The notes under the pieces are model-generated. The model had not been told where the DNA came from. It was given only the letters and a program-made list of their open reading frames with translations, and did no database searches. DNA of 64,000 bases from a virus (Duplodnaviria > Caudoviricetes). Made by a program: the position numbers and the translations under genes. This document shows, piece after piece, positions 21,846 through 55,119 of the stretch (within the stretch, counting starts at the first letter, position 1; each line of letters opens with the position of its first letter). The stretch spans positions 1 through 64,000 of IMG/VR virus record IMGVR_UViG_3300030100_000603; one strand, 5' to 3'.

Positions 21846-23576
21846 TTATTTCCACTTACCGAATACGAATACATCGGATTGAATGTTAACTGTAAGGCCC
21901 GAAATACCGCCTTCCTGAATCCAAATCCAATTTAGATTAACTGATGTTGTATTTTTTCCAGAAACTTTCATAACGATGGCTGAATCAGGATTCGCACTTT
22001 GAACACTACCCAAAACAGAATAACCCCCGGTAAAAGCGATTGGGAAGGTCCAATTTTGAGGTTGGGATGTGCCTGTACCCAAAGATGAATTATAACAAAC
22101 TTGGGAACCATCTGCGAGCCTTGTCCACCCACCATCACTATTACTGCCACTTTCAACAATAGGATCACCACCAACAGAAGGCATCCCGGCAAAGTCAGGC
22201 CCACCATTAGAATTAATTGGGTAGCTGTCAACCGCATTCCAAGAATCACCATCGTAAATTTTAAGTTTATTGTCAGCAGTTGACCAAAAGAGAGCGCCCA
22301 CCATAAGAGGGTTGCCGTCGTTATCTAAGCTGGGGTCAGAACTCTTGCTTCCGAGGTATCTATCATCAAATTGATCATACAGCGCAAATGTGTTACTTTC
22401 ACTTGTAGCGGCATCATTCGCGCTGTTCGCAGCATTAGTCTCACTTGTGGAGGCGTTTCCTGCTGAAATGGCGGACTGATTTGCATGGTACTTGGCTGAA
22501 TAACCAACACCATCCACTGTACTGCCAAGTTTAGTGGCCCAATCCTCAGAAAGATCAGCACTTGAAGAGGCATTATTTTCACTAGTGGCAGCATTGCTTG
22601 CGCTTGTAGCAGCCGCAGAAGCGGAGTTAGCTGCATTGGTTTCGGATGTAGAAGCAGCACTGGCACTGTTAGCGGCACTAGTTTCACTATCAGCAGCATT
22701 ACTAGCAGATGTTGCAGCAGCGTTTTCTGAACCAAGAGCATTATTAGCAGATGTTGCAGCATTCGCTTCACTGGTTGCAGCATTGTTCTCAGAAGTCTCA
22801 GCAGCACTCTCAGACAAGGCAGCAGCAGTAGCACTGGCATCAGCATTCTGTGCAAATGTATCTGCCTCAGAAGCTTTATTAGAGGCTACGTTGGCGTTGA
22901 AGGATGCAGTATCAGCGAAACCACTAGCAGTTTGAGAGTAGTATTTAGCGGAGTATTCACTACCATCAACCGTATCAGATGTTTTAATTGCCCAATCTTG
23001 AGATGTAGAAGCACTAGTTGCTGAACTGGAAGCAGAGGATGCCGCAGCTTGAGCATGGTACTTGGCAGAGTATTCACTACCATCAACGGTATCACCAAGC
23101 TTAATTGCCCAATCTTCTGCCAGTTGGGCATTTACCTGAGTCTGTTGAACGGCAGTACTGACCTCACCACCGATTTCCTGTGAAAGACCCCAGACGATAG
23201 TACCACTAGCAAAAGTGTCACCAAGAGTAATGGTATTTGTACCATCAACAGTGAAGTTGAAGTAACGATAAGCACCACTGCCCTCATCAATGTATACAGA
23301 AATACCAGAGGTCTGAACGCTGTTGAATGTTACATTTGTTTGATTTGAACCAAGTGTTACTGATTCACTGATTGGTGCCAATGTACCAGCAGTAATCTGA
23401 GACTGAAGGTTAGCAATAGCGGTCGCAGCAGTGGGTACAGGACCGTTATCCGTATTAACAAATGTTTCTTCAGGGCCATTTACAATATTAAACAGAAGAT
23501 CGGATGCACCCTCCGCTTTTGTTGACGCAGCATCGGCCCTGGACGCAGCATCATTCAATACATCAATATATGACAT
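21846..23576 (-). CDS. Long tail fibre
   Basis: Ala/Ser/Asn coiled-coil repeats, three WAxK..TVDG..YSAKY repeats, beta-rich C-terminal tip. Confidence 0.8.
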   Translation of the reverse strand: MSYIDVLNDAASRADAASTKAEGASDLLFNIVNGPEETFVNTDNGPVPTAATAIANLQSQITAGTLAPISESVTLGSNQTNVTFNSVQTSGISVYIDEGSGAYRYFNFTVDGTNTITLGDTFASGTIVWGLSQEIGGEVSTAVQQTQVNAQLAEDWAIKLGDTVDGSEYSAKYHAQAAASSASSSATSASTSQDWAIKTSDTVDGSEYSAKYYSQTASGFADTASFNANVASNKASEADTFAQNADASATAAALSESAAETSENNAATSEANAATSANNALGSENAAATSASNAADSETSAANSASAASTSETNAANSASAAATSASNAATSENNASSSADLSEDWATKLGSTVDGVGYSAKYHANQSAISAGNASTSETNAANSANDAATSESNTFALYDQFDDRYLGSKSSDPSLDNDGNPLMVGALFWSTADNKLKIYDGDSWNAVDSYPINSNGGPDFAGMPSVGGDPIVESGSNSDGGWTRLADGSQVCYNSSLGTGTSQPQNWTFPIAFTGGYSVLGSVQSANPDSAIVMKVSGKNTTSVNLNWIWIQEGGISGLTVNIQSDVFVFGKWK

Positions 23577-28149: not shown

Positions 28150-28734
28150 TTAGCTCCACAAATATTCTGTAATTACAAATTGATCCAGAAGTTTATTAGA
28201 CTTTGATTTATTTTCTTCGGCAGGTAAAACTTGTAAGTTATACCAAACATGAAGACCGCTTACATTCTTTCCCCGTAATGGGATAATGTGGTCAACCTCG
28301 TAAGGTGTACCACTTGTAATTGTCATCTCACTTGAGTATTGATATATTCTCTCGATGAGATAATTATTCCTTTCCCCAAGTTCACCTGAAAGTTTTAATG
28401 TGCGTTTTTCTTTGTCTAACTTATATCGCACACTATAAAGAAGCACTTTATGCTTATTTTTACTTCTCCATATTCGACCGTTCTCTTTCACCCGATCTTT
28501 ATTTTCCTGATACCATTTTCTGAAGTAATCTAAGTTTTCATAATAATATTGCTTAGAATATCCTTTTTCAACTTGTCGTTTTGAAGATTCGTTATCACAC
28601 ATTACACAATAACGATTCTTGGTTCTTCTTTTATAAATGTGACCATTTTTACATGGTTTGTTTGTGAAATAAAATTCAGAACCTCTTTTCATTGCTTCTG
28701 AATAACTTTTCGGTAAATCCTTAAATTCATCCAT
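28150..28734 (-). CDS. Zn-ribbon HNH endonuclease
   Basis: [15 protein letters not shown]; [23 protein letters not shown]. Confidence 0.88.
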
Positions 28735-28749
28735 ATTTTATAACCTCTG

Positions 28750-28818
28750 TCTAGGTTGAAATAAAAAGCACCTAGATGATGAGACAGCATCACCAAGGGA
28801 GCTACCCTGTTCGGTGCT
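28750..28818 (-). ncRNA. Structured leader motif A upstream of HNH gene
   Basis: AGCACC/GGTGCT closing stem enclosing AGGG-TAGCT-CCCT and GTGATG/CATCAT hairpins, then U-tract; homologous to 48234-48300. Confidence 0.6.
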
Positions 28819-28831
28819 AAAAAGTTACCTA

Positions 28832-29668
28832 TTAGTTCGGGGAAGAAGTAGTACCACCAGAGTCACCATCATGAGTGTGGTTGACGAGTGAAACACCACT
28901 AGCAACAACATCACTATCAGAAGTAACATTGCCTGTAATACTAAAGTCACCAGTAATACTTGCAGTAGAACCACCAGCAGTACCGCTACCAATCATACCA
29001 GAGGTATAAGTGAATGTACCCTGAACAAGCATATCACCAGTAACAGTGGTACTTGGTGAATCAATAGTAGTGCTACTTGATGCATTGATTTCTGCGGTAG
29101 AAGTATTCACAACAGATTCTTGACAGTTCACTTCAACCTTGTTTCCTGGTGCATTGATGATTACATCACCACCCTTGGTAAGCCTTACCTCACATTCAGC
29201 AGAAGTACCAATGTTATGAGACATTACGGTATCATCTGTACTGTGTGACAAGGAACGCTTGGATGGGTTATTCACAGCATCAGGGAAACCAAACAGACCG
29301 GGAATCGCCATAGCATCCTTACGAGAAAACTTGGACAAGTCAGTAGGTCGGTGAGGTTCTTTTACACCCAATTTGAACTGTGAAATAGATCGTTGTGAAA
29401 AAATACACAGAACAGTATCACCAACGTTCACCGGGAAACTGAACTGTGAAGTAGAACTACCTGGAAAGATAAGTGGAACACTCAACACCACAGGATGAGA
29501 AAGTGTCTGGTCATCAGGTTTAACCCTGTCAACAAGTAACTGTACATCTACCCTTTGTTCAGGAAGAGAGACAACACTCTGTACAACAGCAGGCATTGCA
29601 GTAAACATTTGCCTTGCTGCATTCCCCACGTATTGTTTAATTAGTCCTTCAAGTCCGATATTCTCCAT
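28832..29668 (-). CDS. Baseplate spike (gpV/gp138-like)
   Basis: FPVNVGDTVLCIFSQR, beta-helix repeats, C-terminal HTH metal tip. Confidence 0.85.
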   Translation of the reverse strand: MENIGLEGLIKQYVGNAARQMFTAMPAVVQSVVSLPEQRVDVQLLVDRVKPDDQTLSHPVVLSVPLIFPGSSTSQFSFPVNVGDTVLCIFSQRSISQFKLGVKEPHRPTDLSKFSRKDAMAIPGLFGFPDAVNNPSKRSLSHSTDDTVMSHNIGTSAECEVRLTKGGDVIINAPGNKVEVNCQESVVNTSTAEINASSSTTIDSPSTTVTGDMLVQGTFTYTSGMIGSGTAGGSTASITGDFSITGNVTSDSDVVASGVSLVNHTHDGDSGGTTSSPN

Positions 29669-46058: not shown

Positions 46059-47159
46059 TTAGAAGCGGTATTCTTCAGCGAACAGTTCAGGCTGCTCACG
46101 CTGGACAATATCCAGAGCCTTCAGATAGTCCACGGAATGGGCTTCTTTGGCTTTCTCGATAGCGGCATCCAGCTTGGAACCGGAAGGTTGATCGTCGGTC
46201 TTAGCTTTACCGATTTCTTCCAGCATATCACCCTTGGTAGCGGTATCACGATAGGCTTCGAAAGCCTTAACGAGAGCTTCACAACCCTCAGTTTCTTCAG
46301 CAATACGCAGAGCCTTGGCGAGTTCTTCAGCCGGATTCTCTTCGGTAACGACCAGGGTATGTTCCTTGGCCTTAGCGAGATAATGCTCTTCCTTACGACG
46401 CTCTTCAGCAGCCTTCAGGACAGCAACAGTCTCGTTCACTTCTTTGAAAGACTTCTCAAGATCGGCCTTTTCCTGCTTAGCTTTTTCAGCATCTTCTTTG
46501 GCCTTTTCAAGCTCAGCCAGTTGCTCACGAGCTTTTTCCAGTTCAATCTCGACTTCGCTCTTCTGGATATCAGCTTCTTTAGTCATTTGAGTTTCCTCTT
46601 GTTTAACGTTAGTTTCATCTTCAGTATTTACTTCCCCACCTTTCTCTACTGAAGATGAGGAACCTTTAGGGGTTTCCCCCAAAGACTTTTCAACAAAGTA
46701 TTTTTCATCAAAGCTGTTGAAGTTCTCAATGAATTCTTCAGCCTGACGGATACGTTCTTCACGACCAGTTTCATCACTATTTGAATCAATGCTGGTTACT
46801 TTATCCATATTACTTTGGACCATTTCACGGAAGGAAGTAATATCGTCTTCCACTTCGTAAATGTCTTCGTAACTGTAACCAAGCATCCCGGCGATAGTTT
46901 CAGCAGCGTCAATATCGACGTAAAGATAACGGGTAAGAAATTCCATCAGCGGAAGTTTCAGGTTGACATTTACAGCCTTTTGAATTTCTTCGTCGGGGGC
47001 ATGGTCAGTAACACCGTTGGTTGCTTTGGTAATCAAAGTGGTATGTTGATTAGCGGCGCCCCCAACGGAAGGTCCAACCAACGCACAATGAGAACCGTTA
47101 TAATCAAAATCGAATTTTTTAATTCGACGCTTGGCTTTAACTTCTTGTGGTTTTGTCAT
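46059..47159 (-). CDS. Scaffold-containing head protein
   Basis: N-terminal HCALVG..GGAAN domain, acidic coiled-coil C-terminal half. Confidence 0.7.
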   Translation of the reverse strand: MTKPQEVKAKRRIKKFDFDYNGSHCALVGPSVGGAANQHTTLITKATNGVTDHAPDEEIQKAVNVNLKLPLMEFLTRYLYVDIDAAETIAGMLGYSYEDIYEVEDDITSFREMVQSNMDKVTSIDSNSDETGREERIRQAEEFIENFNSFDEKYFVEKSLGETPKGSSSSVEKGGEVNTEDETNVKQEETQMTKEADIQKSEVEIELEKAREQLAELEKAKEDAEKAKQEKADLEKSFKEVNETVAVLKAAEERRKEEHYLAKAKEHTLVVTEENPAEELAKALRIAEETEGCEALVKAFEAYRDTATKGDMLEEIGKAKTDDQPSGSKLDAAIEKAKEAHSVDYLKALDIVQREQPELFAEEYRF

Positions 47160-47617
47160 AGGTCTTCCACCTGTCCTCTACACCCAATGCTTACACCGTT
47201 TATTTCACCAGACTTAACCATTTCCCAAAGTTTATCTGATGCCTCATCACCTTCTGGGAAGTGCCACCACTGTAACCATGTACCTTTCTTAATGTGGCGT
47301 CCGTCTTCTGTTTTAAAGTCAGACGGTGAAATAAAAGACTGCACAATCTTGGCATTTTCTGTTTCAACTTTATGAAACAGGTTTGCTTTCATTGAGTGTT
47401 GATTAAAAGAAATACATGCCTTCTCAATCTCATCGGCAGTATACGTATCACCATGAGCATCAGTGGTTGAATCACCATCTTGTGGTTCTAACACAACAAA
47501 CATGGCCATACGTTGTTCTGTATCAACAGCTTTGGTTACCTCAGTCTCTTGGGAAGATGGTCCACCAAAATGTTTTTCTACCAGTTCTATAATACTTTGT
47601 GTAAAGTTTTCAGTCAT
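47156..47617 (-). CDS. XkdF-like prohead protease
   Basis: DAHGD, ANLFHK, GTWL, LWEMVKSGEINGVSIG. Confidence 0.85.
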   Translation of the reverse strand: MTENFTQSIIELVEKHFGGPSSQETEVTKAVDTEQRMAMFVVLEPQDGDSTTDAHGDTYTADEIEKACISFNQHSMKANLFHKVETENAKIVQSFISPSDFKTEDGRHIKKGTWLQWWHFPEGDEASDKLWEMVKSGEINGVSIGCRGQVEDL

Positions 47618-47620
47618 GTG

Positions 47621-48223
47621 TCATAACCCCAAATAGTATTCAGTGAATGGTTCAAACTTATTATGTTTACTATAATTAACCCTAGCCGGTAATATCTGAA
47701 GATTCTGTGGTGCATGTAACCCACACACCTTATCATTATTTAAAGGAATTATGTGGTCTACATTCACTTTAGTATCCAAGGGGTCATCAGAAACCACACA
47801 CTGTTCCAGCTTAACTTCGAGCATTTTCGCCTCTAAGAATATCTCATTAATTTCTTCACTGAATACCGGGTGCGAAGATGCCTTTTTGAGAAACCGTCTT
47901 TTACTTTCATTAGCTGCTTTTTGTGCTCTCCGTGCTGCTAGTTTTTCACCACCAATATCATAAAGCTCTTTGCGATGCTTCTTTACATATTCCGCCCTTT
48001 TAACCTTACTTTCAGGAGTATTGCGCCTAGCCCTTTCTTTGGCATTTCTAGCTTCACGGAATTCATTATCAGACATTGCATCCAAATATTGCAATCTCTT
48101 ACATTCTACACAAGTACCATTATTAGTGTATCTGGGTGAAAAATGTCCATCCCGGCAAGGTTTACCAGTAAAATACTTTTTAGCACCTAATTTTATTGCG
48201 TCTTTTCTACTAATAATATCCAT
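47621..48223 (-). CDS. Zn-ribbon HNH endonuclease
   Basis: YFTGKPCRDGH..CVEC; NVDHIIPL..KVCGLHAPQNLQ. Confidence 0.88.
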   Translation of the reverse strand: MDIISRKDAIKLGAKKYFTGKPCRDGHFSPRYTNNGTCVECKRLQYLDAMSDNEFREARNAKERARRNTPESKVKRAEYVKKHRKELYDIGGEKLAARRAQKAANESKRRFLKKASSHPVFSEEINEIFLEAKMLEVKLEQCVVSDDPLDTKVNVDHIIPLNNDKVCGLHAPQNLQILPARVNYSKHNKFEPFTEYYLGL

Positions 48224-48233
48224 ACAACCCCCA

Positions 48234-48300
48234 TCTAGGTTAAATAGATGAACCTAGTTTATGAGATGGCATGAACAGGGGAGCTACCCTTTTCGGTTCA
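48234..48300 (-). ncRNA. Structured leader motif B upstream of HNH gene
   Basis: TGAACC/GGTTCA stem enclosing GGG-TAGCT-CCC and ATG/CAT hairpins; homologous to 28750-28818. Confidence 0.6.
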
Positions 48301-48305
48301 AACTT

Positions 48306-49133
48306 TTAAACACGCTTTACAATTCTCACAGACGAACGACAACTGTGTAACGGTGGGAATGCTGGTGGGTAAGGTCTACCATTTGGAAACACACCACCAA
48401 TTTCCGCAGTGGTTAAATGCGAAGACAGGCAAACATCAGTAGTATTACCATCCACCACACTAACCCAAAGCTTAACATACTGTGATGGATCAAGTTGCCC
48501 ATCATTTACAGCAGCAGTCCACGCGATTTCTTTTGAGCCTTCAACAACCTCAGTACCAACCAGATTGGCAAACAATCTAATACGCCATTCAACAAGACGA
48601 TCAATTCGTGATTGAACCTGTCTTTCAATTGACGCTTGGGAAGTACCACTTGCTCTCATGGCATCTTCCATATTCAAGATTGTTTGTAAGTGGTTTGGGG
48701 TTAAACCGTAATAACGTTTGAATGCATCAAACAGTTGTTTATCAGTCCAACCCTTTTCCTGAGCAACCTGTTGAAGTTTTACCCACATTCGTTCATTGGT
48801 ATCCATGATCTCATCAATGTTATCTTGGAATACTTGCCGAACGAATGCTTGTAGTCGCGGGCTTGTCTGATCGAACAGTATGTCACCGAGGGAGAGTTCA
48901 CGTTTAGTTCGATCCAAGCCCGTCTGCAAAGCGGTAGAAGAAATATCGTAAAGGAAGGGCATTACCCTAGAAACTTCAGACCTAAAACGATCCTGCACAG
49001 TCTGGAATGATTGCCTTGTAAAGTTTTCGATTCGAGGTGCCTGCACAAAGGCCAAAGCCAAAAGTGCAAGCAATTCTTCCTCAACCGAATCTTCAAGTTC
49101 ATTCTCTTCACTAAAAGGAGAAGGTTCGGCCAT
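48306..49133 (-). CDS. Head morphogenesis protein (Mu gpF/SPP1 gp7-like)
   Basis: KLWVSVVDGNTTDVC, PPLHSCR; after portal. Confidence 0.75.
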   Translation of the reverse strand: MAEPSPFSEENELEDSVEEELLALLALAFVQAPRIENFTRQSFQTVQDRFRSEVSRVMPFLYDISSTALQTGLDRTKRELSLGDILFDQTSPRLQAFVRQVFQDNIDEIMDTNERMWVKLQQVAQEKGWTDKQLFDAFKRYYGLTPNHLQTILNMEDAMRASGTSQASIERQVQSRIDRLVEWRIRLFANLVGTEVVEGSKEIAWTAAVNDGQLDPSQYVKLWVSVVDGNTTDVCLSSHLTTAEIGGVFPNGRPYPPAFPPLHSCRSSVRIVKRV

Positions 49134-49146
49134 TGTCACTCCCCCA

Positions 49147-50725: not shown

Positions 50726-52360
50726 TTACATGTTCCAAATATTAGTCCCTTGCATGGCACCCATATTCAATTTGAAGTCAGTTGGTGCGATTTGACCCAA
50801 TGAAAGATTATTGAAAGCATCACTTGTGGCGTCACACTGGTCATCGTGTCCAGTACCATCACCAACGAAGTTTTCGAGTTCTTTGCAGTAATCCTCATTC
50901 CAGTCGCCACGAACGATCTTGATAAGACCTGCTTCTGCGGCAGCACTGAATGGTTCAAAACGTTCCAACTTAGATTTAGTCGTCTTACACTTCTTGAATT
51001 TGTAACCCACAAGGTTCTTAGCGTGATCCTCAAAGACAGCCTTACCTGCACCACCAGCATCCAATGGGATACCGACTGTACACTTGGGACCATCTTGTTC
51101 AGCCTTCTTACGCATCATTTTCTTTACGCCAGAAGGACGTTTACGATCACGAATAGAATGCATTACATAATAATACCCGTCTGTTCCCAAGCGAATCTTT
51201 ACCCCTGCTGTGTAGTCAGGATCAGGATTAACCTCGGAAGGTTCGGTTGATGCTGTATCCCATGCACGCATCTCAGCTTTAGGTGGTGGAACATCTTTGA
51301 TATCGACAAATTCACACCAATCACGATGGAAATAACTACCGGCGTTAGCCTTGACATTCCATGAACCGTAGAGCAGTGCTTCACGGTCGATACGTGAGAG
51401 TGATTTCAGGTTTGCTTCGTATGCAGGGTCAATCTTCTTGTTGTCCTTCACGGTCGCATTGATGAACGTAAAAGACTTGGGCATTGCATCCTTACCCCAA
51501 ATACTCTCAGCTTCCTCTCTGGAATTGTACCAGTGAGTATCCTCACCACGACGGACAAACCAACGAAGAACACCACAGCGTTCCTCAATTGGGAAACCTT
51601 CGTCGTCAATCCACCAGTCTACAAGTGTTCGTACCCATCCTTCAGAAGTCGGGTTACAAGTAGCTCGGATATACGGACGGACACCCGTACCAGAACGGTT
51701 ACGAGAAAGCATGTACCAGAACATCTTTTCAGTGAAACCAGTCAACTCATCGAAGATAATCAATGGCACCTGTGAACCTTTGTAGTTCTCCAAGTCCTTC
51801 TCAAGTTCGATACCAGCAAACTGTACACGACTACCGCTGTTCTGGAAGTTCCACTTCATGACACCATCGTAAGATTCAGCGTCGGGAAAGTTATTAAAAA
51901 TGTTGAATGATTCGTCCCAAGGACCGCCAGGGTGGCGTAGCTCGGCTTTAGTACGACGGAAGAAAATCGTATAGAAATTCGGTACGTCTTTATGCCTCAG
52001 ACACTCAAGCAGAAGAGCGAAGGTCTTACCACTACCAGCACCTCCCGGTGCATGTTACGATGATCGCTACTCATCTCTCTTGTTTCCAAGAGTGTCGGAC
52101 TATATCTTATTGGTAATAACCAATCCCCCCGTTTCGACTCCGCTTGGAGCCTACAATTAGTCTCTGCACGTTCAAAACCCGACACAAAGGCCGGGTTAAG
52201 CTTCGCTCAGGATTGCCTTATCTTTCGACTTAGGTTTCCCTGAATTAGAGGGGTTTTAGTACGGCAGAGGATTTTTACCGTACAAACAAATGTCAGCCTG
52301 TGTTTCTAGGAACATGGACTGTTTACCAGGCTGAGGTTCCAACCTTTCATATCTAGCCAT
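50726..52360 (-). CDS. terL: Terminase large subunit, join(52277..52360, 50726..52045), 467 aa
   Basis: Exon 1 MARYERLEPQPGKQ...ICLYG (28 codons) + exon 2 GGAGSGKT restores Walker A in frame; Walker B IIFDE; nuclease AWD, DDQCD. Confidence 0.9.
52046..52276 (-). ncRNA. ORF-less group I intron (231 nt, IA-like)
   Basis: P1 UACGGU/GCCGUA with U.G at 5' splice site; P10 CCUCU/GGAGG; core AAUUCAGGGAAACC, AAUCCUGAGCGAAG, CAGAGACUA, AAGAUAUAGUCC; P9 GAAA hairpin; terminal G. Confidence 0.93.
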
Positions 52361-52880
52361 AAGAAATCACCTTATCCTTCCTCATATCCCTTGTAAAACC
52401 ACTAAGGGAAGACAATTTCCTACCAGAAAGAATCTCACTGATGTAATCCGACCTTCGGATATCAAGAGATAAATAATCACAAATCTCTTTGCAACTAAAT
52501 CCACAATGGTACATCTCATACATCTTGTGGAAGTCCTGATATGTTAGGTTCACAAGAGTCTTGGTTTTCATAAGACCCGTTTTGTACGCATGATGCATAT
52601 TAAGTGTTCCAGTAACATACTCAAGATTGTCTTTGGCGTTATTGAGTTTATTCCCGTCGATATGGTTTACTTGGCAACCCTCGGGTTTCTCACCATGAAA
52701 ACACTCAGCAATGAGAGTGTGAACCCGAACACTTCTGCGACGAACACCATCACTGAGAATAATTTCACGATAACCGTCCCATGTGACTTTTCCAGCAAGA
52801 ACATTACCGCGTTTACCGATTATATCACCATTCTCACAGGCAAAATAACCGGGATAGTCTGCAATCTCAACCTTACTCAT
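52353..52880 (-). CDS. NUMOD4-type HNH endonuclease
   Basis: YPGYF...G.I, RVHTLIAECF, VNHIDGNKLNNAKDNLEYV; start ATG 52880. Confidence 0.88.
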   Translation of the reverse strand: MSKVEIADYPGYFACENGDIIGKRGNVLAGKVTWDGYREIILSDGVRRRSVRVHTLIAECFHGEKPEGCQVNHIDGNKLNNAKDNLEYVTGTLNMHHAYKTGLMKTKTLVNLTYQDFHKMYEMYHCGFSCKEICDYLSLDIRRSDYISEILSGRKLSSLSGFTRDMRKDKVISYG

Positions 52881-53790
52881 CCTTCCTCCCATTGTCAGGC
52901 AAGAACACCCCGTTCTCTTCATCGTACTCACCAGCTTCACGATCAACTGCTTCCAGTTCATCAGGTTCAGTATAATGGGATTGGAAGTATTTGTCAAGTT
53001 CATCTTGTGACTGGTGTGTAACAACCTTGTCACCAAGTTCTCTTGAATTACTCGGAAGCGTAACGTGAACAACAGGAAGGGATTGACGTTCTTTCTGTTT
53101 TTCCATTGCGAGGGGATCAATCGGCTTTGGTTTCGCGTAGGAATACGAGGCATAAATTTCCAATGCTTTAAGACGTTGTGCGTTAGTTATTGGTTGCTTC
53201 GTATTGAGCTTATTCTCATCACCCTGAGCCCAGGCAATAAGTTGTTCAGCAGGATTGAAGTTCAGACGTTTGGCGGCACGCTCGACATTCTCCATACGCT
53301 TCTTTCGTGCGGCTTTAGCGTTGGCGGATGCTTTCTTGGCGTATTCTTTGTCCTGAAGGCTGGGGTTACCCTGTGGGCGACCAGTAAGGCGGGATATACA
53401 TGAGACAGCTTTGAACTTACGGGACCAGTACGCTTGATACGTTCGGATCAGCTTATTTGTATCAGGGTCACGTTCACCACTTGGAAGTTTCTCTACAACA
53501 AGCCAAGCGTGTTCGGTAGGATGCTTGAACAGATTACGTCTTTCGAATTGAATACCCTTCTTGAGTTTCCACTTCTCAGCAATCTGTTTGATTGTATCTT
53601 CTGGATCAAACTTGAACGGAAGAAGAGAACCGTCTACAATGTTGGGGTCCATAATATCTTCGTTCCAATACAGACCACTTGTTTCCGAAACACATAGATA
53701 TTGGACAGGCCAATCACCTTCCGGCCCGAGCCATTCAATGAAAAAACTATCAATATCTACGTATTCAATGTGTTTATCTTTGTTTGCCAT
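52873..53790 (-). CDS. Probable terminase small subunit
   Basis: Position upstream of terL; GRPQG, helical core, acidic C-terminus. Confidence 0.55.
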   Translation of the reverse strand: MANKDKHIEYVDIDSFFIEWLGPEGDWPVQYLCVSETSGLYWNEDIMDPNIVDGSLLPFKFDPEDTIKQIAEKWKLKKGIQFERRNLFKHPTEHAWLVVEKLPSGERDPDTNKLIRTYQAYWSRKFKAVSCISRLTGRPQGNPSLQDKEYAKKASANAKAARKKRMENVERAAKRLNFNPAEQLIAWAQGDENKLNTKQPITNAQRLKALEIYASYSYAKPKPIDPLAMEKQKERQSLPVVHVTLPSNSRELGDKVVTHQSQDELDKYFQSHYTEPDELEAVDREAGEYDEENGVFLPDNGRKDE

Positions 53791-54405: not shown

Positions 54406-55119
54406 TCATTCTAAATCCTCCGAAGGTTTAATCATTCCATAATATTTAATCTCGGCTTCCTCCCGCAATGAAACCGCAACTAGGTATTCCGTACTTGACC
54501 CAAGATGTTTTGTTTCTCCTTCATATTGACAATATGCCGAGTAAACAGGCTTACCATCTTTTCTGTAATGAGAGATGTAAACACCTGTACGACTACTAGT
54601 ATTAGTTTTATGCCTTCTAGTGTTATATGCTTGAATAACCCGATCTGACCAAATGCAGTTTTCAGGGGCATAATCACCATTAACATCTAATCGTTCAAGG
54701 GTATATTGCTCTGGCCTTTCTCCCATGTCAAAAATAAAATTCCGCAACCCCTTTTCTCCATCCAACCATCTATCACAAACTTTAATTCCTCTCCCACCAT
54801 AATCCTTATAGGCTATATCCGTCTTAGTGTAACATCTGCGAATCATAGACTTATATGATGTGTAAGCCCTCATCTTGGAAAGACGATGGGTTGAAAATTT
54901 TTCCCTAACAGTTTTCCGATGAAAACAGCCGCACGATTTTGTATAGCAAGATTTCCAAGATTCAATCATTACTTCACAAATGTTCCCACAAACACAAGAA
55001 AAGAAAGCCTTTCTGCGTAACCTACCAGAAGGATTGGTGTGTGGACGAGTCTCCATTAAAAAAGTCAACCATGAACCATAAATGGTTTCACCAAACTCAT
55101 AAGTCTTTTTAGCAGGCAT
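54406..55119 (-). CDS. HNH/AP2-type homing endonuclease-like protein
   Basis: CVCGN..SCGC, SMIRRC, GGRGIKVCDRW, TLERLD..GDY.PENC.W, AP2-like tail; paralogue of 5490 and 58023. Confidence 0.82.
   Translation of the reverse strand: MPAKKTYEFGETIYGSWLTFLMETRPHTNPSGRLRRKAFFSCVCGNICEVMIESWKSCYTKSCGCFHRKTVREKFSTHRLSKMRAYTSYKSMIRRCYTKTDIAYKDYGGRGIKVCDRWLDGEKGLRNFIFDMGERPEQYTLERLDVNGDYAPENCIWSDRVIQAYNTRRHKTNTSSRTGVYISHYRKDGKPVYSAYCQYEGETKHLGSSTEYLVAVSLREEAEIKYYGMIKPSEDLE

Follow-up and report, generated by a model that had tools for sequence, protein, structure and literature searches.

The window analysed here is a 64,000-nt (64-kb) stretch of DNA that forms part of the 77-kb genome of an uncultured marine phage. 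It holds two genes for Zn-ribbon HNH-type homing endonucleases, both on the minus strand. Both lie in clusters of structural genes: the neighbours of the 194-aa ORF are a baseplate spike gene of gpV type (28832-29668) and a gpW-like gene, those of the 200-aa ORF a head-morphogenesis gene (48306-49139) and an XkdF-type prohead protease gene (47156-47617). Each is preceded by a copy of the same structured leader, whose parts are as follows (P, helix; J, junction strand; L, loop; R1, covariance model built from 56 relatives).

28150-28734, minus strand: 194-aa Zn-ribbon HNH-type homing endonuclease gene
28732-28818, minus strand: leader copy 1, from the P1 5' strand to the AUG of the HNH gene (from the sequence and R1)
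28767-28818, minus strand: copy 1 three-way junction (from the sequence, minimum-energy fold and covariation), with P1 AGCACC/GGUGCU, J1/2 GAACA, J2/3 UUG, P3 GUGAUG/CAUCAU and J3/1 CUA
28797-28807, minus strand: copy 1 P2, GGG-UAGCU-CCC
28782-28787, minus strand: copy 1 loop L3, CUGUCU, fully complementary to L4
28742-28757, minus strand: copy 1 hairpin P4, AACCU-(AGACAG)-AGGUU, with loop L4 at 28747-28752
47621-48223, minus strand: 200-aa Zn-ribbon HNH-type homing endonuclease gene
48221-48300, minus strand: leader copy 2, from the P1 5' strand to the AUG (from the sequence and R1)
48249-48300, minus strand: copy 2 three-way junction (from the sequence and covariation), with P1 UGAACC/GGUUCA, J1/2 GAAAA, J2/3 CUG, P3 UUCAUG/CAUAAA (one C-A mismatch) and J3/1 CUA
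48279-48289, minus strand: copy 2 P2, GGG-UAGCU-CCC
48264-48269, minus strand: copy 2 loop L3, CCAUCU, complementary to L4
48226-48241, minus strand: copy 2 hairpin P4, AACCU-(AGAUGG)-GGGUU, containing the Shine-Dalgarno sequence, with loop L4 at 48231-48236

The two ORFs are paralogues (32% identity, BLASTP E 3e-22) and, as a first-pass annotation of this DNA had it, belong to the same subfamily: both match PHROG 1035 ('endonuclease VII', E 1e-17 and 8e-16), and both proteins have an N-terminal CxxGH...CxxC ribbon and a C-terminal VDHIIPL...N...N..K motif, of which the D-H, N and N positions are kept in relatives. Pfam, NCBIfam and PDB sequence searches gave no significant match for either, the AF2 model of the window HNH is of low confidence (pLDDT 67) and its Foldseek matches to HNH domains are hints below significance, so the label 'HNH-type' rests on the PHROG match and the motif, the other searches adding nothing significant. 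No leader was found at the other nuclease genes of the same phage. One of these is an HNH_3 endonuclease ORF, without a leader copy, in the region of a group I intron (Rfam RF00028, 81 bits; 52076-52304, minus strand) at the terminase large-subunit gene; the ORFs around this intron lie at 50726-51859 and 52353-53153, and the downstream one matches Terminase_6N from profile position 74 only. A 237-aa ORF with cysteine pairs (54406-55119, minus strand) resembles a mobile nuclease by eye, and has neither a Pfam match nor a leader.

How similar are the two leaders? R1 matches copy 1 at 28765-28820 with 59.2 bits and copy 2 at 48247-48302 with 64.5 bits (all filters off), and the third-best match in the 64-kb window reaches only 9.8 bits; the proposal of a conserved, covarying structured RNA leader in front of two HNH genes is borne out. 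The element had been drawn too short, as in both copies it reaches the start codon (28732-28818 and 48221-48300), and no further copy occurs in the remainder of the 77-kb genome. At about 85 nt each the copies are about 79% identical, against 32% identity of the two HNH proteins. Their closing stems differ by genuine compensatory changes (AGCACC/GGUGCU versus UGAACC/GGUUCA), which had already been noticed, and the loop-loop pairing covaries as well, with CUGUCU:AGACAG in copy 1 and CCAUCU:AGAUGG in copy 2. The minimum-energy fold of copy 1 contains the same three helices as the family model (P1, P2 and P3), and the minimum-energy folds of the window copies beat shuffles only modestly (z -1.0 to -1.9, a score in which loop-loop pairing cannot be counted). 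A sigma-70 promoter scan and a terminator scan found nothing at either leader. An intrinsic terminator was considered and rejected: the consensus scan has none at either copy, and a U run follows copy 1 only. ARAGORN called no tRNA in the window. A near-identity search of the flanks against cultured phages gave no match, and the sequencing runs with this DNA are marine metagenome DNA only, with no RNA run listed.

To find relatives, viral contigs were scanned with an exact pattern of the conserved core, which gave 11 loci of the same architecture, all upstream of ORFs. A looser seed gave at least 120 matches and an exact 19-mer in metagenome contigs at least 119; a filter for the full architecture left 124 distinct instances among the matches listed, from viral and metagenome contigs together. 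The seeds for these instances are exact and lie within J1/2-P2, and invariance there is therefore partly by construction. Scans in which the P2 stem or the P2 loop was freed returned almost only GGG/UAGCU/CCC again, plus two variants: with the stem free, all loci new to that scan were chance matches, and with the loop free there was a single true variant (L195). Other phage contigs hold three to four leader copies apiece. Among 185,579 bacterial and archaeal species genomes, 17 pattern matches and one strong model match, on a small MAG contig, were found, so the motif is essentially viral. A BLAST search of 50,697 phage records yielded a canonical copy in a cultured coliphage, Escherichia phage EP_H11 (74 bits; OP688485.1, about 22495-22573), and a variant leader in the uncultured podovirus genome MW202701.1. 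Leader-bearing phages come from marine, freshwater, sludge and enteric sources.

Has this RNA been described before? At the gathering threshold over the whole window, Rfam 15 gave no match other than the group I intron, and at E up to 10 over 28700-28850 it gave chance matches only (best E 0.31), int-alpA (RF02996) not being among them; cmscan thus assigns the leader to no known family. A literature search by keywords and by literal sequence found no description of the motif, the literal matches being unrelated primers. The leader family is widespread in phages, absent from Rfam 15 and without a description that we could find in the literature; it may already be among the 8,495 unnamed candidates that an IMG/VR catalogue listed in 2023. 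A second leader type was seen at four loci (L017:9842-9903, minus; L098:4394-4441, minus; L046:2564-2620, plus; L105:10769-10824, minus). It has GAAUA-GGGUAGCUCCC in common, with GAAAAG or AACAA as J2/3, a longer P3 loop and another J3/1; by eye, the P3 loop matches a downstream purine-rich stretch, not always the one next to the AUG.

The family fold has five helices: P1, P2 and P3, which form the three-way junction, the Shine-Dalgarno hairpin P4, and a loop-loop helix between L3 and L4. Read from 5' to 3', it consists of P1 (4-9 bp), J1/2 GAAAA, P2 GGG-UAGCU-CCC, J2/3 CUG, P3 (5-8 bp) with a loop L3 of 6-7 nt, J3/1 CUA or AUA, the P1 3' strand, a short linker, P4 (3-6 bp) with its loop L4, 7-8 nt and the AUG. 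Four of the five helices covary strongly (P1, P3, P4 and the kissing helix L3-L4), so the covariation suspected from two copies holds in a larger alignment. In the core alignment P1 and P3 together are 94.4% paired, compared with 40-52% when the partners are slid by one to three columns, and double-sided changes occur at 11 of 11 P1 and P3 pairs; the three pairs of P2 are invariant. When P4 and the loop-loop helix are included as a pseudoknot, in the alignment to the start codon, 89.8% is paired versus 38-52% with slid partners, with double changes at five of the six kissing-helix pairs and all five P4 pairs. A structure-blind ranking by mutual information puts 13 proposed pairs in places 1-13. 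G-U pairs are frequent (for example, 16 U-G at the P4 closing pair), which makes the fold RNA-level and strand-specific. The sequences are akin, and shuffle controls therefore overstate significance; the slid-partner controls and the many independent double changes in the aligned sequences argue that the structure is real.

The 14th place in the ranking belongs to nucleotide 4 of J1/2 and nucleotide 1 of J2/3, the latter just after P2 (A:C 34, G:C 6, U:G 3 and C:U 2). The two probably make a non-canonical contact within the junction, the A that precedes P2 being bulged out. These positions are columns 14 and 27 of alignment A4 (28809/28796 and 48291/48278 in the window), and their covariation is seen also between close relatives. 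Around 20 junction and loop nucleotides are near-invariant while helix sequences vary freely, an invariance that comes in part from the retrieval seeds. In the P2 loop UAGCU (28800-28804 and 48282-48286, minus strand) there is a self-complementary AGCU, and the one clear P2 variant, GGG-AGUAAUUA-CCC of MW202701.1 (L240:1513-1526), also has a palindrome, UAAUUA; such palindromes hint at RNA-RNA dimerisation or a symmetric partner. The first-pass annotation had called both the UAGCU loop and an xxTCT-CAT stretch invariant. UAGCU is indeed near-invariant; the agreement in xxTCT-CAT is a coincidence of two copies, because it belongs to the P3 loop, which has 70 variants in 124 instances among the matches listed and covaries with L4.

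Could the leader be an attenuator, in which the P1 3' strand closes the junction at one time and binds a downstream ACCUAG at another? The CUAGGU of that strand is complementary to ACCUAG in both window copies, and the centroid fold of copy 1 shows the CUAGGU-ACCUAG pairing. Over 45 distinct leaders, however, the alternative is 54.9% paired versus 52.7% in shuffled ones (as high a value came up in 43 of 500 shuffles), and it scores 0.110 for covariation where shuffles score 0.098. What pairing is left over stems from the conserved CUAG and the anti-Shine-Dalgarno CU, and the linker is just 2-3 nt long in most members. An attenuator of this kind is highly unlikely, and two mutually exclusive folds are not supported across the family, there being no extra covariation. 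The ACCTAG that had been taken for a competitor of P1 is instead the 5' strand of the Shine-Dalgarno hairpin AACCU...AGGUU together with the start of its loop.

What, then, does L3 pair with? The entire loop is complementary to a downstream stretch in 113 of the 124 distinct instances among the matches listed, in which L3 takes 70 different sequences. The mean match is 6.08 nt, as compared with 4.16 nt when loops are set against other leaders, and it ends 7-8 nt upstream of the start codon in 80 of 109 (7 nt from L4 to the AUG in copy 2 of the window). At the start of L3, one or two nucleotides (CC or CU) are paired to the leading G's of GGAG/GAGG, and the rest of the Shine-Dalgarno sequence is the P4 3' strand, paired to a pyrimidine-rich anti-Shine-Dalgarno strand; in copy 1 the Shine-Dalgarno purines run across the 3' end of the loop and the 3' strand of P4. 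P4 alone is weak (mean -1.2 kcal/mol), and the L3-L4 duplex contributes about -6 kcal/mol. Since P4 is weak on its own, occlusion of the ribosome-binding site would depend on the junction presenting L3. The T4 late promoter TATAAATA occurs internally in 0 of the 124 leaders among the matches listed. Linker and P4 5' strand together are mostly 5-8 nt long, usually too short for a promoter, with a linker of 2-3 nt in most members.

We propose that the leader is a cis-acting 5' UTR RNA that belongs to a mobile cassette of free-standing homing endonuclease genes. Its compact three-way junction would hold out L3 so that all 6-7 loop nucleotides can pair with L4, and the ribosome-binding site would be locked in two helices together, L3-L4 and P4. 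As a result, translation of a potentially harmful nuclease would be kept low or conditional. The leader is probably a portable translational brake, or possibly a switch, on homing endonuclease genes, and repression of translation is its most likely effect, judging from the position of the Shine-Dalgarno sequence inside the structure. There is precedent in homing endonucleases of the T4 family, which are under RNA structures that sequester the ribosome-binding site (PMC2988022; PMC2677866). The first-pass annotation had offered translational control and a nuclease-bound RNA as roles. Translational control is the most plausible of these, because the Shine-Dalgarno sequence lies within the structure; the bound RNA is addressed below.

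Which genes follow the leader? Of 104 distinct downstream ORFs, among the matches listed, every Pfam match is to a homing-endonuclease domain: Endonuclease_7 and HNH_3 (11 ORFs each), GIY-YIG (six), PDDEXK_5 (five), HNH_2 (four), HNH and NUMOD3 (three each), and LAGLIDADG and DUF559 (one each). Most ORFs that Pfam does not recognise have a PHROG match to homing endonucleases. In length the ORFs range from about 120 to 300 aa, RuvC and IscB features are lacking, and at least four nuclease folds are represented: HNH/His-Me, GIY-YIG, LAGLIDADG and PD-(D/E)XK. Conversely, 80 sampled loci of window-HNH relatives found by protein alone had no leader at E up to 1. The association is one-directional: each ORF with a recognised domain behind the leader is a homing endonuclease, and the HNH family does not imply the leader. 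A tie to this HNH subfamily, as first suggested, does not hold, since GIY-YIG, LAGLIDADG, PD-(D/E)XK and several His-Me nucleases share the leader and 0 of the 80 sampled relatives have it; the leader co-occurs with homing endonucleases of several folds rather than with one HNH family. In EP_H11 the ORF behind the leader encodes 303 aa (L239:1571-2482, plus strand; OP688485.1 22571-23482). It has no Pfam or PHROG family match and, from its position behind the leader, may be an unclassified homing endonuclease.

These genes bear directly on whether the RNA might be a cofactor or guide bound by the nuclease, in the style of HEARO or the IscB omegaRNA. The leader does adjoin HNH genes, and its variable loop can in principle be read as a programmable segment. 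Yet the same leader stands before four unrelated nuclease folds, the variable loop has its partner in its own mRNA, 7-8 nt upstream of the AUG, the ORFs lack RuvC and IscB features, Rfam gives no HEARO match, and the leader is missing from all 80 sampled relatives of the window HNH. With one leader serving unrelated folds, with its variable parts paired to one another and without an Rfam match, a nuclease-bound RNA is extremely improbable.

Leader and nuclease come and go together. In a relative whose head-morphogenesis gene is 51% identical (L252), the stop codon of that gene lies directly against the protease start codon, and both leader and nuclease are lacking between the flanking genes; as these genes abut there, leader copy 2 of the window and its gene amount to a 688-nt insert. 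Likewise, the 97% identity between EP_H11 and phage IME392 ends 5 nt before P1, and EP_H11 has the leader plus the 303-aa ORF (1052 nt) in place of 183 nt of IME392. The cassette is thus absent as a block in L252 and IME392, in agreement with the mobile nuclease and RNA module that had been postulated. At the site of copy 2, three related phages carry the same leader subtype in front of unrelated ORFs, with similarity stopping at the start codon: a Zn-ribbon HNH in the window, an N-terminal HNH in L005 and LAGLIDADG in L007. With one subtype before unrelated genes at the same site, the leader is a reusable front end for nuclease ORFs.

Is the leader then simply a landing pad at the DNA level, a short conserved stretch through which nuclease cassettes are swapped by recombination? 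Three unrelated nuclease ORFs behind the same leader at one site, with similarity ending at the start codon, are what such a pad would leave behind, and the PeSLs are a precedent (PMC2839356, PMC4122927). Selection, however, is on base pairing and not on sequence, as the compensatory changes and the abundance of G-U pairs show; no more than about 19 nt in a row are invariant, and pairing to the ribosome-binding site is left unaccounted for. There is little chance that this is the function, and cassette exchange might instead be an added advantage.

The leader starts 1-15 nt past an upstream stop codon, or 1-4 nt past a tRNA gene. Leader-nuclease cassettes are often found inside phage tRNA arrays: the leader starts 1-4 nt after the 3' end of a called tRNA in L003, L004 and L013, and the leaders of L011 and L029, judged by eye, come after a tRNA-like 3' end without an ARAGORN call. 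That the leader itself is a tRNA or tRNA-like was considered and rejected; in other phages it adjoins tRNA genes and is not itself called as a tRNA by ARAGORN. A -10-like hexamer (TAgTATAAT, TGgTATAAC) lies 6-9 nt before P1 in L036, L076, L087, L089 and the L016 group, and MW202701.1 has a full TTGACA-18-TATAAC upstream (L240:1463-1492). Cassettes with such upstream elements seem to bring their own promoter, and in this subset the entire leader would be transcribed, as the elements lie upstream of P1.

A start so close to the preceding gene, be it a stop codon 1-15 nt or a tRNA gene 1-4 nt away, also fits a processing element, either a self-cleaving ribozyme or a nuclease entry site, that would detach the nuclease mRNA from the operon or tRNA array and so insulate essential neighbouring genes from it. 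Small junction ribozymes have similar conservation patterns. The leader junction strands do not fit the hammerhead core, as we take it to be, in length or sequence, and a hammerhead-like reading was dropped. The seg genes of T4 are cut by RNase E (PMC2988022). Against processing, there is no Rfam ribozyme match, the covarying pairing to the ribosome-binding site is left unexplained, and in the subset with an apparent -10 element 6-9 nt before P1 the RNA would start there already. We regard a processing element as very unlikely.

The translational brake leaves one feature of the family to be accounted for. A plain hairpin would suffice for constant repression, and a brake alone therefore leaves the near-invariance of junction and P2 loop unexplained. 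Might the GAAAA/CUG/CUA junction and the P2 loop be the binding site of a small molecule, or of a host or phage factor shared by many hosts? Such binding would stabilise or release the L3-L4 lock and time nuclease synthesis, which would refine the brake and is compatible with it. Both a conserved aptamer-like core and a captured ribosome-binding site, as in riboswitches, are present, the retrieval seeds lying in that core. A near-invariant core beside freely varying helices is aptamer-like conservation, P4 alone is too weak to block ribosomes, which makes occlusion hang on the tertiary fold, and the covariation of J1/2 nucleotide 4 with J2/3 nucleotide 1 indicates a defined junction core. On the other hand, there is no candidate ligand and no match to an Rfam riboswitch, a single kind of expression platform is seen, the hosts are so diverse (from coliphage to marine, freshwater and sludge phages) that the factor must be near-universal, and the invariance of the core is partly owed to how instances were retrieved. 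A conditional switch is therefore rather unlikely. Put more broadly, that junction and P2 loop sense something (some metabolite, a signal of the infection state or a universal host factor) or make up a catalytic core is a guess with the odds against it. If true, it would mean a new riboswitch or ribozyme class that times selfish nuclease expression in many phage lineages, possibly with RNA-RNA dimerisation through the AGCU of the P2 loop.

No selfish genes are commoner in virulent phages than those for homing endonucleases, and to our knowledge the way in which their expression is kept from doing harm is understood only for a handful of T4-family genes, each with a hairpin of its own. The leader is a single portable, conserved RNA module for at least four unrelated nuclease folds, and thus a defined object with which to study how homing endonucleases are throttled, with coliphage EP_H11 in E. 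coli as a cultured system. It is also a compact natural fold of three-way junction and kissing loops for RNA structural work, and a marker for unannotated nuclease genes such as the 303-aa ORF of EP_H11. Should the conserved core sense something, the leader would be a new regulatory RNA class.

How does the leader compare with known systems? In the SAM-II/V and preQ1-II/III riboswitches a pseudoknot or docked helix hides the Shine-Dalgarno sequence. The leader resembles them in having a conserved junction core, free helices and a ribosome-binding site caught by tertiary pairing; unlike in these riboswitches, the capturing strand is a freely varying loop and not part of a binding pocket, and no Rfam riboswitch matches. 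HEARO, a large RNA, binds to IscB and directs the cutting of DNA. Like HEARO and the IscB omegaRNA, the leader is an RNA that adjoins HNH-containing genes of mobile elements, but it measures about 85 nt, extends over the ribosome-binding site, stands before unrelated folds and lacks an Rfam match. The catalogue of structured RNAs from IMG/VR draws on the same data source and includes cis-regulatory candidates up to 25 nt from the start codon; its main text makes no mention of endonuclease leaders (PMC10690425). The PeSL cassettes of T4-type phages combine promoter and terminator stem-loops and work at the level of DNA and transcription (PMC2839356, PMC4122927). As with the PeSLs, a short conserved regulatory motif flanks shuffled genes and accompanies modular exchange, whereas the leader conserves an RNA tertiary fold across the translation start.

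Hairpins that sequester the ribosome-binding site are found at I-TevI, I-TevII, I-TevIII, segB, mobE of Aeh1 and the 'fractured gene' endonucleases; these T-even-type hairpins bury a Shine-Dalgarno sequence that lies about 8 nt upstream of the AUG, presumably to restrain a protein that is harmful or disruptive (PMC2988022; PMC2677866). The leader structure likewise includes the Shine-Dalgarno sequence of a mobile nuclease gene. The T-even hairpins are simple, gene-specific and bypassed by a late promoter, TATAAATA, inside or beside the hairpin, whereas the leader has no such internal promoter (0 of 124 among the matches listed) and is one conserved family over four nuclease folds, built as a three-way junction with a loop-loop lock.
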